Origin: Candidatus Falkowbacteria bacterium
Lineage (GTDB): Bacteria; Patescibacteriota; Patescibacteriia; Patescibacteriales; Patescibacteriaceae
Assembly (NCBI GenBank): GCA_037130845.1
Contig: JBAXSE010000013.1
Location: 1-38,664, forward strand
Length of the DNA stretch: 38,664 nt
Reading direction: 5' to 3'
The translations under genes were made by a program, and so were the position numbers. Positions 24,070 through 26,706 of this stretch are shown in pieces (the stretch's first letter is position 1; each line of letters begins with the position of its first letter). Under the pieces are notes generated by a model. It saw nothing but the letters and a program-made list of their open reading frames with translations. It had not been told where the DNA came from and searched no databases.

Positions 24070-26706
24070 ATGAATGTTGCACAATTAAACACAGAAAAGC
24101 GTCTTGCTACGGCTATTATGCCTTGGAAAGACATCAGCATCGGTTCGGCCGCTATTGTTTCTAGCACTATCGCTAATAGCGGTATTTTTACTTCTACCCA
24201 AACCTTTAAGATTCAAGTTCCGCTTAGTGTTAACGAAAGCGTAACCAGGGATTATGACGGTTATCGCTTGCCAATGGACAAGCTGGACGAAGACGGAGTA
24301 ATCCGAGTCGGCGAGAGCGTCGCCTTGGGTGATGTGCTGGTTGCCATGATTGAATATGATCCACGAGAGTATCAGCCGGAAGAAAAATTGCTCAAAGCAA
24401 TTTTTGGCGACGGTGCTACTAACGTGACCGATCGTTCGGTTACCATGTCTTTCCCTGATCCTGCTATAGTCTATAGCGTCGAAAAAAAACTCGAAGGCAA
24501 AAAAAAGCTGGTGACTGTTTATCTGGCCTTTAAACGTAAACTACGTTTGGGTGATATTCTGGTCGATAGCAAAGGTAACCAAGCAGTTGTCTCGGCTGTT
24601 GTTGCTGATAATGAAATGCCTTATCTGAAAAGCTCGCAAACCAGAGCTCAAATAGTGGTTACGCCGCTCACTGATTGCGGCGAAACGATGGTAGATCATT
24701 TGGATAAACAAAGGCTGGTTGTGGTATATGATACCGAAGATCCCAAGTTTATCCTGATAGCGCCGCCGCTTGATAGGCCAAGCAAAAATAAGAAGTGGTT
24801 ATGCAAAGATGAAGAAGCGCGTTTTGGGGCTATCGCTTGGAAAAAATTAGAACTATTGTCCGGTCAAAAGAATATCGGTTATGGCGTTCAAAGTAGATTG
24901 CGCAACGATGCCCAATTGGTGGATGGCATCAAGATCCGCCAAGAATTTATCACAAGCCTGTTGCATTACAATCTGCCGGCTGTAGCCAGAGAATTTTTGA
25001 CCGTCAAGTCTGACGATGCCAAAGGCTACGGCGATACTGTACAAGCTATTATTAATGGATGGTCTTTGCCCGCAGCGGCTGCTCCGGCTTCGCTAAAGCG
25101 CTATGAAGCGACGATCAAGGCAATGGCCTTGACTATCGGAGTCGATAACGGCAGTAGGCAAGTCGGCTTACTTGATGGCTATAATTATCCCAACCAGGAT
25201 TTGCCAGGTATTGGCGTTTCTTTGTGGGTAACTCCGCAATCAGAGATTTTGGCTCAGTCCCACGGTGAATTGACCGGTGTTGATTATATGGATGATGCTA
25301 TCAAGCAGGCTCAAGGGAAAAAGAAAACAGACAAGATAGAAGTCGGTTTGTTCAGCCAACGCATTTTCGGCCCTCTACGGGATTATGAATGCGCTTGCGG
25401 TAAATACAAGCGAGTCCGCTATAGCGGCATCGTCTGCGATCGTTGCGGTGTCTTGGTAGCGCAAAGCTCTGTGCGCAAAGAACGTTTCGGCCATATCAAC
25501 CTGGCTTTGCCTTGCGTGCATCCTTTGTTCGAAAAAGCAGTTGCCGAGTTATATAAGTCGATCGATTACACGAACACTCCGCAATATTTTGAAGAGCTGA
25601 TCGAAAAAAACTTTGATCTAGAAAAAGCCGATTATCTTTTTGAATGTTCCGAGATAATGAAAAAGTTATCGTTGCCCGAACAGCAGATTCTTAATGTCAT
25701 CCCGGTCATGCCGGCCGGTTGGCGTTCCGATTGGATGTCTTATACTAGCAGTTGGACAATGGATTTAAATTATCTATATAGCAGATTAATGACTCGTAAC
25801 AATCGATTGACTCGATTAATCGACATCAAAGCTCCTTGGATGATTATCTCCAATGAATATCGAATGCTACAAGAGGCTTTGTCTGAATTATTTAATTGCA
25901 CTCATTTGGGGAGTGAGACTCCGCCTGTCGGATTGATCCATAGCCTGCAAGCAGCCGGTCGCAATCTTTATGACAAAAAGGTTAGTTATTCCGGACGTGC
26001 GCTGGTTATCCCAGATGACCGCCTGGCAATCGACGAATGCGTTTTGCCTAGAACTCTGGCAGTCAGATTGTTTGAGCCTTTTGTGCTTCAGCGCTTGATG
26101 GCATCGCCGCCGGAAACTCCTTGCGACCCGATTTGGGACGATTCTTATCCGGATCTGCCTCCTATCTTGGCAGATGTAGTAGTAGATATTGCCGCTGGCA
26201 ATAAGACTACAGTCGATCTAAAGAAGATTGATGAAGATGAAGCTAGAGCTTATCCGGGCTATACCTACAAGACGGCTAGTGGAATGGTTAAAAATAACCA
26301 CCCCGAAGCATTGGAAAAGCTGGAAGCGATTGTTGGCGATAGGGTTGTCCTATTGAGCTCTGTCAGTCAGATAGAATTTGCCGGTTTTTGTCCACGTTTA
26401 AGTAACGAAGAAGTCATCAGACTTCATCCGCAGGCTATTAAGCTTCTTGGTATTTCTCTGGGTAAGGCTGGCAAGGCGTTAGTCTATCTACCCTTGTCTG
26501 ATGATGCTCAAGCGGAAGTCAAAGGTGTTATGTGCGGCCAAGAATGGTCGTATGTTCCTCAGACTCCGAGCGTTGGATATAGCTCTGTTCTTAATAGTAA
26601 TCTCAAGCATCTTGTTTCTAATCCTTGGTTGGATCAACCGGAGCCGGAAACCTGCAAATGGTTGCTATCCTTAAATGATCGATTTTTGCTCAATTATAGC
26701 AAATAG
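24070..26706 (+). CDS. RNA polymerase beta (C-terminal third) / beta-prime (N-terminal third) fusion-like protein lacking catalytic motifs (pseudo-RNAP)
   Basis: 878-aa ORF, AAGGAA SD. Beta-like blocks: [60 protein letters not shown]. Beta-prime-like blocks: [102 protein letters not shown]. There is no NADFDGD; the aligned segment is [17 protein letters not shown]. Confidence 0.85.
   Translation: [878 protein letters not shown]

Follow-up and report, generated by a model that had tools for sequence, protein, structure and literature searches.

What can be the use of a gene that joins pieces of the two large subunits of RNA polymerase (RNAP) in one open reading frame (ORF) and has lost the residues that make RNAP an enzyme? 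This question is raised by a 38,664-nucleotide (nt) stretch of Candidatus Falkowbacteria DNA (GenBank assembly GCA_037130845.1, contig JBAXSE010000013.1, positions 1 to 38,664; hereafter, the window). The ORF at positions 24070–26706 of the + strand, taken from the ORF list and characterised by profile and sequence searches, is intact, starts with ATG and encodes an 878-amino-acid (aa) dead beta/beta-prime mini-fusion, its limits being exactly those given in a preliminary description made from the letters alone. The identical protein in NCBI is the hypothetical protein WCO55_04030 of a Candidatus Falkowbacteria metagenome-assembled genome. RNAP is among the most thoroughly studied of enzymes, and the genes of its large subunits are generally taken to be invariant and present in one copy. 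The data reported here point to a conserved family of non-catalytic beta/beta-prime paralogs, a reading that we hold to be very probable and that is built on the architecture of the protein, the loss of its catalytic residues, the purifying selection on its gene, the presence of a normal RNAP beside the family and a compact fold predicted with confidence, each of them established below.

In a single chain, the protein joins a C-terminal portion of beta that starts near E. coli residue 794 to beta-prime residues ~12–519 (numbering refers to rpoB and rpoC of E. coli MG1655). In the Pfam scan, RNA_pol_Rpb2_6 matched aa 10–199 (E 1.8e-23, profile positions 70–261) and RNA_pol_Rpb1_1 was detected with E 6.2e-22, followed by a weak start of Rpb1_2 at aa 636–676. 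The NCBIfam model of beta/beta-prime fusions NF007172 reached E 2.8e-68 with 229.8 bits against a cutoff of 5372, and NF011417 207.1 bits against 4632; the rpoC and rpoB models were likewise far under their curated cutoffs. Beta-prime chains of the PDB matched with E 1.7e-52 and beta chains with E 6.5e-28, the latter over aa 10–200 and 294–362. The kinship with both subunits, proposed in the preliminary description, is significant in profile and PDB searches alike. The E. coli strings quoted there occur verbatim in MG1655, at beta 864, 897, 1050, 1063 and 1290 and at beta-prime 55, 241, 264, 347, 368, 424 and 457, and each of them pairs with the window peptide that had been set against it. In some searches the best solved RNAP for both halves was PDB 9n9p/9n9q (‘Fta RNAP complex’ / ‘RNA-guided transcription complex’, December 2025), a ranking that most likely reflects only which organism's RNAP sequence is closest.

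The truncation at both ends was confirmed. Specifically, the protein starts at ~beta 794 and, in the same Pfam scan, Rpb2_6 was the only beta domain found, with no match to Rpb2_1, _2, _3 or _45 (N-terminal lobes, protrusion and fork). At the other end, the beta-prime alignment stops at ~519 and no match was obtained to Rpb1_3, Rpb1_4 or Rpb1_5, which comprise the bridge helix, the trigger loop and the C-terminal domains.

Between these limits, the retained parts follow one another on the + strand of the window. A flap-like domain (aa 10–140, 24097–24489; ~beta 794–935) includes the flap-tip helix (aa 103–113, 24376–24408; beta 897–907), located by motif match, in which L901, L902, I905 and F906 are kept. 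After a lineage-specific stretch with a predicted local distance difference test score (pLDDT) below 50 and a family conservation of 0.10–0.13 (aa 202–249, 24673–24816), the beta C-terminal region (aa 251–360, 24820–25149; ~beta 1230–1342) carries the FLTVKSDD peptide; in RNAP, this region packs against beta-prime in the clamp. The beta-prime part opens with the N-terminal zinc (Zn) ribbon region (aa 426–484, 25345–25521), where C441, C443, C456 and C459 correspond to E. coli C70, C72, C85 and C88, and continues with the lid and the clamp helices (aa 543–608, 25696–25893; beta-prime 241–307), where R576, E596 and A603 correspond to R275, E295 and A302. Further retained parts mapped to E. coli are a barrel strand region, the beta-prime zipper, the clamp helices proper (beta-prime 264–307), a shortened rudder and the beta-prime barrel. 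Soon after the ~519 equivalent the protein ends in a 13-residue family motif (26665–26703; consensus L..xD..LLG), whose D870 is invariant in alignment A1.

Both double-psi barrels had been claimed for this protein. The beta-prime barrel is indeed there, whereas the beta barrel is only partly kept: most of beta ~1085–1200 is without clear counterpart, the lineage-specific aa 202–249 lying at this place, and mafft placed there only a short 1194–1205 stretch, in a mapping that is unreliable on the beta side. The beta flap was also misaligned in mafft, owing to the SI2 insertion of E. coli, and the beta positions given here rest on direct motif matches. In the AlphaFold2 (AF2) model of the window protein (pLDDT 69, predicted template-modelling score (pTM) 0.67), both barrel folds are recognisable, the beta barrel being trimmed, and the low-confidence segments coincide with lineage-specific insertions. 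The minimal family member P0006 gave a confident compact fold (pLDDT 85, pTM 0.81). Structural matches to the model in the PDB include the engineered RNAP clamp 3qqc, which is the closest stand-alone analogue, and the isolated, phage-protein-bound flap domains 3tbi and 3woe.

The catalytic motifs are replaced one after the other, as the preliminary description had stated. At the place of YNADFDGDQMAVHVPL, the protein has a 17-residue loop (aa 793–809) with 0 acidic residues; it maps to 26446–26496, and not to 26425–26493 as first reported. HMMER pairs 16 window residues with NADFDGDQMAVHLPL, the Asp triad of NADFDGD (D460, D462, D464) being replaced. NRAPTLHR has given way to SSVSQIEF (aa 763–770, 26356–26379; 0/8 identical). 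On the beta side, the 12-residue active-site loop (aa 161–172, 24550–24585) shows the changes K1065 to I, R1069 to S, H1070 to K and K1073 to Q, and the equivalents of the E813/D814 pair, in the flap-like domain, are G and S.

The same holds beyond the window. Across 70 aligned family members, three acidic residues in the triad columns were found in 0/70; 28 members have none, 33 have one and nine have two, the D464 column being D or E in 35. RHGNKG of beta and NRAPTLH of beta-prime are absent from 70/70. The residues at the former triad vary from member to member (LGKAGK, LEKTRT, LSSNRY, RFAGEQ and others), and because the replacements are not conserved, no alternative active site is apparent. 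Judged by this alignment, the loss of all the catalytic residues extends to the whole family.

The family and its coexistence with a normal RNAP

The family was collected by an exhaustive hidden Markov model (HMM) search of 1.84 billion representative proteins, clustered at 50% identity. About 70 clusters of 560–1040 aa share the architecture and span the whole profile, all of them with a dead site and the same junction; full-length beta::beta-prime fusions and ordinary beta-prime scored beside and under them. An initial search had already returned the short dead fusions P0006, P0008, P0009, P0010, P0016 and P0043, all without the triad. As defined here, and as aligned with MAFFT for 70 members, the family comprises single ORFs of 560–1040 aa running from beta ~794 onward and through beta-prime to ~519, with an incomplete triad, a conserved Zn ribbon and clamp helices, and the L..xD..LLG motif. 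The window protein, used as reference sequence, has all these features and is 24–39% identical to distant members over approximately the full length. Members have in common the fusion junction, the region of the internal beta deletion, the end point at ~beta-prime 519 and the C-terminal motif, which argues for a single origin.

Named members belong to Falkowbacteria, Paceibacterota and Polyangia, and among the members the content of glycine, alanine, arginine and proline (GARP) runs from 0.16 to 0.42, that is, from very AT-rich (Patescibacteria) to very GC-rich (Polyangia) genomes. The canonical beta-prime nearest to the family profile is planctomycete. A word-indexed search with a 50-member alignment retrieved mostly canonical beta-prime and, as new members, only P0129 and P0269. 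A scan of GTDB species genomes by Zn-ribbon motif patterns yielded at least 80 loci, and the matches listed are all canonical rpoB-rpoC junctions, with no mini-fusion among them; the scan of viral contigs and the BFVD fold search returned only ordinary or giant-virus/jumbo-phage RNAP subunits and no truncated dead homologue, and tblastn against plasmids only canonical rpoBC on chromids or mislabelled chromosomes. Several candidates were set aside: P0004, P0005, P0007 and P0072 keep the motifs intact and are read-throughs or fragments of canonical rpoBC, and P0189 is a canonical fragment. P0003 (1031 aa, ENA) has the reverse order, beta-prime ~1–450 and then beta from the middle to the C-terminus, with a canonical active-site motif, and probably results from faulty assembly or gene calling, or else from a rearrangement of an rpoBC region.

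The closest ortholog, P0002, is an 868-aa protein of 69% identity with the same ends and junction, and the gene order around it is that of the window: a DbpA-type DEAD helicase, a 225-aa ORF, the fusion, an ORF of ~107 aa and an ABC-F gene. For the fusion compared with P0002, the ratio of nonsynonymous to synonymous substitution rates (dN/dS; Nei-Gojobori) is 0.13, and for its neighbours 0.04 (helicase), 0.03 (ABC-F) and 0.08–0.15 (small unknown neighbours), all values being approximate with dS near saturation. By this measure, the mini-fusion gene is under purifying selection, in agreement with the earlier remark that it does not look like a decaying fragment. In addition, the identical protein is found with unchanged neighbours on seven contigs, including JGI and Logan (SRA-run) assemblies, which disposes of the misassembly that had been envisaged at the beta/beta-prime junction.

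Conservation within the family is not evenly spread. The highest block values are those of the Zn ribbon (0.62–0.65) and of the lid and clamp helices (0.55–0.68), and the dead-site region has 0.32–0.44. The Zn-ribbon cysteines (equivalents of C70, C72, C85 and C88) are kept in 67/70 members; along the clamp helices, Y269 is kept in 66/70, E295 in 61, R275 in 56 and both R278 and Q300 in 55, while the A302 column holds A or another small residue and L306 is retained too. The C-terminal domain of the alpha subunit (alpha-CTD) is the only recurrent added domain (11/50 members by Pfam, 11/70 by phmmer). It sits at the C-terminus in every case, in one member as two copies. What the first reading of the locus had not seen, and what the sequence comparisons point to, is that the mini-fusion is one of a sizeable, ancient, multi-phylum family, conserved on its factor-docking surfaces and carrying an alpha-CTD in ~1/6 of cases.

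In five GC-rich members (P0137, P0140, P0193, P0202 and P0203), an insertion of ~60 aa with the Cys cluster C..C..C.G.P.GT.IGL.AA..L precedes the C-terminal motif. The insertion is similar to the second Zn site of beta-prime and to the beginning of its trigger-loop region (E. coli ~C814–C898, IAAQSIGEPGTQ), and the family ancestor may, on this ground, have kept more of beta-prime.

The relationship to the normal enzyme is clearest for P0008. On the 1-Mb contig L007, its gene directly follows rpoB, rpoC, dnaG and rpoD, lying 150 bp 3' of rpoD (the sigma70 gene at 6630–7850) on the same strand; the rpoC of L007 carries NADFDGD, and P0008 is only 31–45% identical to that genome's own RpoC. The presence of P0008 beside canonical rpoB and rpoC indicates that the family is an old paralog, not a replacement or a genuine split subunit, and the paralogy suspected from the start is upheld.

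Possible docking partners and rival explanations

In RNAP, the clamp helices, for sigma region 2, and the flap tip, for sigma region 4, are the two principal sigma-docking sites of the core; the clamp helices also dock NusG, and the flap tip also docks NusA. R275, E295 and A302 of beta-prime, whose positions were verified here, are taken by us to be needed for sigma70 binding, following E. coli genetics. We propose, with a probability of roughly 0.55, that the family acts as a factor-docking surrogate of RNAP. The protein would be unable to polymerise and would be kept as an autonomous docking platform presenting the upstream face of RNAP. Held by the dead barrels, clamp helices and flap tip would stand to each other roughly as they do in the holoenzyme, and the Zn ribbon, the lid and the zipper would complete the surface touched by sigma and by upstream DNA or RNA. 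For this mechanism taken as a whole, the odds appear to us about even.

The most likely activity would be the binding of a sigma70-family factor, and the outcome would be either the buffering or sequestering of sigma away from core RNAP or an inert pseudo-holoenzyme occupying promoters. The alpha-CTD of about one in six members would add the remaining promoter- and activator-contacting module of RNAP, and these fusions favour an action on promoter DNA. Sigma is preferred because of the alpha-CTD fusions and of the single adjacency to rpoD; as the main partner, we propose it tentatively. Somewhat more doubtful is the picture of a catalytically dead protein mimic of the RNAP core, which, in bacteria of several phyla and in some lineages with an alpha-CTD of its own, would load sigma in a holoenzyme-like geometry and recognise promoters without transcribing them. 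The same surfaces could instead serve NusG and NusA, with titration of elongation factors as the result.

A direct precedent for such a fusion as an autonomous factor-docking module is offered by 3qqc, an engineered fusion of Pfu subunit B 1053–1115, A' 3–318 and A'' 334–371, which is soluble and binds Spt4/5 stoichiometrically (PMC3094117).

Several points weigh against the docking proposal. The eleven distinct neighbourhoods compared give it no consistent support: the gene is mostly monocistronic among housekeeping genes, with no conserved partner, and a sigma gene is adjacent only once. The flap-tip region is missing or degenerate in ~10/70 members, so that a two-point grip on sigma would not be universal. 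The lid of the window protein itself has diverged, the equivalents of R270 and R293 both being Ser, and its own AF2 model is only moderately confident. In addition, structural constraint, or recent descent from a parent that was itself highly conserved, could account in part for the conservation seen in the clamp helices and Zn ribbon, instead of a ligand that is still bound.

A first alternative is that the protein is an elongation-factor or RNA-exit-channel surrogate, binding mainly NusG (clamp helices), NusA (flap tip) or both, Rho or nascent-like RNA through the retained flap, Zn ribbon, lid and zipper, and tuning termination, antitermination or RNA handling instead of initiation. In RNAP, the conserved surfaces do serve NusG and NusA. 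The closest stand-alone structural analogue, 3qqc, binds the NusG homologue Spt4/5, and RNA-handling genes occur in several neighbourhoods, namely those of the DbpA helicase and of ABC-F in the window, of RNase Y next to P0006 and of a CCA/polyA polymerase near P0366 and P0145. These neighbourhoods, however, are not conserved, nusG or nusA adjoins the gene in none of the eleven, and the alpha-CTD fusions suit promoter or activator contact better, although the alpha-CTD also binds NusA in E. coli. We consider this alternative rather unlikely.

Less likely still is an RNAP-associated or assembly factor that would bind the alpha dimer, omega or the real core through its retained inter-subunit surfaces, whether to assist assembly as a chaperone, to serve as a storage partner or to regulate core assembly in a dominant-negative way. 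The coexistence of the gene with canonical rpoBC suits it, and the retained barrel regions would include surfaces that in RNAP contact alpha; yet conservation in these regions falls below that of the clamp helices and the Zn ribbon, and the alpha-CTD is fused without the alpha N-terminal domain, so that alpha would not be recruited in the normal way.

The matches of the model to isolated flap domains bound by phage proteins (T4 gp33 in 3tbi and P23-45 gp39 in 3woe) bring in a further explanation, a decoy for RNAP-targeting phage proteins or toxins that would mimic the flap and the beta-prime N-terminal surfaces, to which many phage inhibitors bind, and protect the real enzyme or sense attack. 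PADLOC, however, gave no match for the window protein, its two neighbours and two other members; the neighbourhoods examined show no defence-island or mobile-element context and no associated effector, and no member was found on viral contigs. With no PADLOC match and housekeeping contexts, a defence system was rejected, and the decoy appears to us quite improbable. A prophage polymerase was rejected as well.

Could the protein still be a polymerase or nucleotidyl transferase with non-canonical catalytic residues? The two-barrel scaffold is retained, two acidic triad residues persist in 9/70 members, and the D464 column holds D or E in 35/70. All three are found in no member, though, and in the window protein not one is left; the loop that replaces them varies, K1065, K1073, R1069, E813/D814 and NRAPTLH are gone, and the bridge helix, the trigger loop and the template-holding beta lobes are absent, which makes this activity extremely improbable.

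A pseudogene, decaying duplicate or assembly chimera has in its favour the loss of catalytic motifs that decay would bring and the real read-through or fragment artefacts among database ‘fusions’ (P0004, P0005, P0007, P0072), and it is refuted, as far as sequence data allow, by 878 intact codons, the dN/dS of 0.13, seven independently assembled contigs with the identical protein, the 69%-identical ortholog, the ~70 divergent homologues with the same junction and end point, and the confident fold of P0006.

Expression signals and gene neighbourhood

The preliminary description had credited the gene with its own promoter, Shine-Dalgarno sequence and flanking terminators, and most of these elements were found again. 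Between the upstream 225-aa ORF and the mini-fusion gene, the terminator scan and the sequence reveal a bidirectional terminator hairpin with a perfect 20-bp stem and T-runs on both strands (23895–23938). It is followed on the + strand by a promoter-like TTGACA-17-(TG)TATTTT (23970–23998; consensus scan, 10/12 matches) and by a Shine-Dalgarno-like AAGGA (24058–24062), read from the sequence, with the ATG 7 nt further on. The downstream terminator is weak: at ~26716–26749 (+), an imperfect hairpin CCTCTCC...GGGAGG followed by the T-run TTTTTATTT can be read from the sequence, but the terminator scan made no + strand call for it. The hairpin terminator, the promoter-like site and AAGGA, all consensus matches, support an independent transcription unit of the mini-fusion, with expression predicted.

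The window is an ordinary chromosomal stretch of housekeeping genes, and no rpoB, rpoC or sigma gene is found in its 38,664 nt. Directly 5' of the mini-fusion, the 225-aa ORF (23144–23821, +) has no Pfam or PADLOC match; its counterpart at the same place in the P0002 genome is 64% identical (dN/dS ~0.08), and, judged by domain content, no neighbour resembling it is conserved at the loci of other members. Directly 3', a 107-aa ORF with a GTG start (26831–27154, +) has no family match and is probably a small membrane protein, as suggested by two long hydrophobic stretches; it adjoins the mini-fusion in the P0002 genome (72% identity) and in every assembly of the window protein. In the P0002 genome, a giant ORF of at least 3178 aa with no Pfam hit on record (L001 1–6964) precedes the DbpA helicase, and the corresponding place in the window is held by a NUDIX protein and a radical-SAM protein.

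At other loci of the family, an AddA/AddB-type UvrD-helicase / PD-(D/E)XK nuclease gene lies immediately 3' on the same strand in two distant members (L007 10921–13998 and the P0016 contig), and P0043 (L010) is followed, on the opposite strand, by genes for UvdE and a DHH protein. The AddAB and UvdE neighbours may mark a link to DNA repair or be a coincidence.

Elsewhere in the window, a histidine-themed cluster (10084–14095) comprises a histidyl-tRNA synthetase (10084–11499), a histidine/aromatic ammonia-lyase (11514–13169), an unknown 222-aa ORF and tRNA-His(GTG) (14020–14095). Genes of NAD salvage and biosynthesis occupy one strand at 33100–38579: an isochorismatase/nicotinamidase-like protein, nicotinate phosphoribosyltransferase, an unknown 302-aa ORF, NAD kinase, NAD synthase and a uridine-kinase/PRK-family protein. 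As listed, there is an overlap of ~100 nt between the ORFs for NAD kinase (36265–37002) and NAD synthase (36896–37954), which suggests that the GTG start of the latter was probably called too early. At 3489–6386 on the - strand, a 965-aa hybrid sensor kinase with several PAS domains and with GAF, HisKA, HATPase_c and receiver domains is large for a Patescibacteria genome.

Comparison with known systems

A dead beta/beta-prime mini-fusion was not found described in the full-text literature searched, in line with the initial impression that it does not belong to a described family; an earlier mention is possible in comparative-genomics work outside that coverage. Conserved multi-phylum dead paralogs would add a new class of pseudo-enzymes to the core transcription machinery, the more so as they keep the docking surfaces for sigma, NusG and NusA and in some cases have an alpha-CTD. 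If sigma binding proves true, the family would provide the first protein mimic of the RNAP core and a new control of sigma availability or promoter occupancy; on the core-mimic reading, this would amount to a new layer of global control, by promoter bookmarking or occlusion or by sigma buffering through a pseudo-holoenzyme. Such a layer would stand out in Patescibacteria, with their small genomes and few conventional regulators. On the practical side, the family would be a naturally soluble single-chain clamp-plus-flap platform for binding and structural studies of initiation and elongation factors. For annotation, such genes are liable to be taken for fragments or fusions of rpoB/rpoC and could disturb marker-gene phylogenies and completeness estimates.

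Compared with canonical RpoB and RpoC, the protein is homologous to beta ~794–1342 and beta-prime ~12–519, with the flap, flap tip, Zn ribbon, lid, clamp helices and both barrel folds recognisable. Unlike them, it is a single 878-aa chain where they form two chains of ~2750 aa altogether, it belongs to a family that coexists with rpoBC, and it is without the beta lobes, protrusion, bridge helix, trigger loop, jaw, secondary channel and catalytic residues.

The full-length fusions of Helicobacter and Wolbachia, whose models NF007172 and NF011417 are the best NCBIfam matches, have the same order, beta and then beta-prime, joined at the natural C-/N-terminus junction. These proteins, however, are complete and active, measure ~2800–2900 aa and replace the separate genes, whereas the window protein is only their junction-proximal third.

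YonO and the Orf6 of yeast killer plasmids are closer in size (~900–1000 aa) and carry the two barrels on a single polypeptide, which in Orf6 also follows the same order of subunits. Both retain the metal-binding motif. A single chain of up to ~1000 aa with both barrel regions is also what the window protein is (878 aa, the beta barrel trimmed), but the DxDGD metal-binding motif of the YonO/Orf6 type is absent from it. YonO and Orf6 are, moreover, encoded by mobile elements and very divergent, while the family is chromosomal and near to cellular beta/beta-prime, with a dead site. The B. subtilis prophage YonO has been characterised as an RNA polymerase (PMC5467207), and the 982-aa Rpb2::Rpb1 fusion Orf6 has been assigned to a plasmid transcription system (PMC2919709).

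The nearest stand-alone analogue, the clamp rClamp (PDB 3QQC; PMC3094117), is man-made, has 381 aa, consists of the clamp only and includes an A'' fragment that is missing from the natural family. The family has, in turn, a flap and two barrels, and rClamp has neither.

Anti-sigma factors, Rsd and 6S RNA are functional analogues only. If sigma docking is right, the outcome would be the same, an altered partition of sigma or holoenzyme; but anti-sigma factors are unrelated small proteins and 6S RNA mimics promoter DNA, whereas the family would mimic the RNAP core, with no homology to any of them. We know of no precedent for a mimic of the RNAP core itself.

In conclusion, on the sequence features compared above, the protein is an RNAP-derived pseudo-enzyme that falls outside the catalytic RNAP subunits, the full-length fusions and the YonO/Orf6-type polymerases, lacking the traits that define each of them. 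Its function would be new in kind, if the mimicry of the core proves true.

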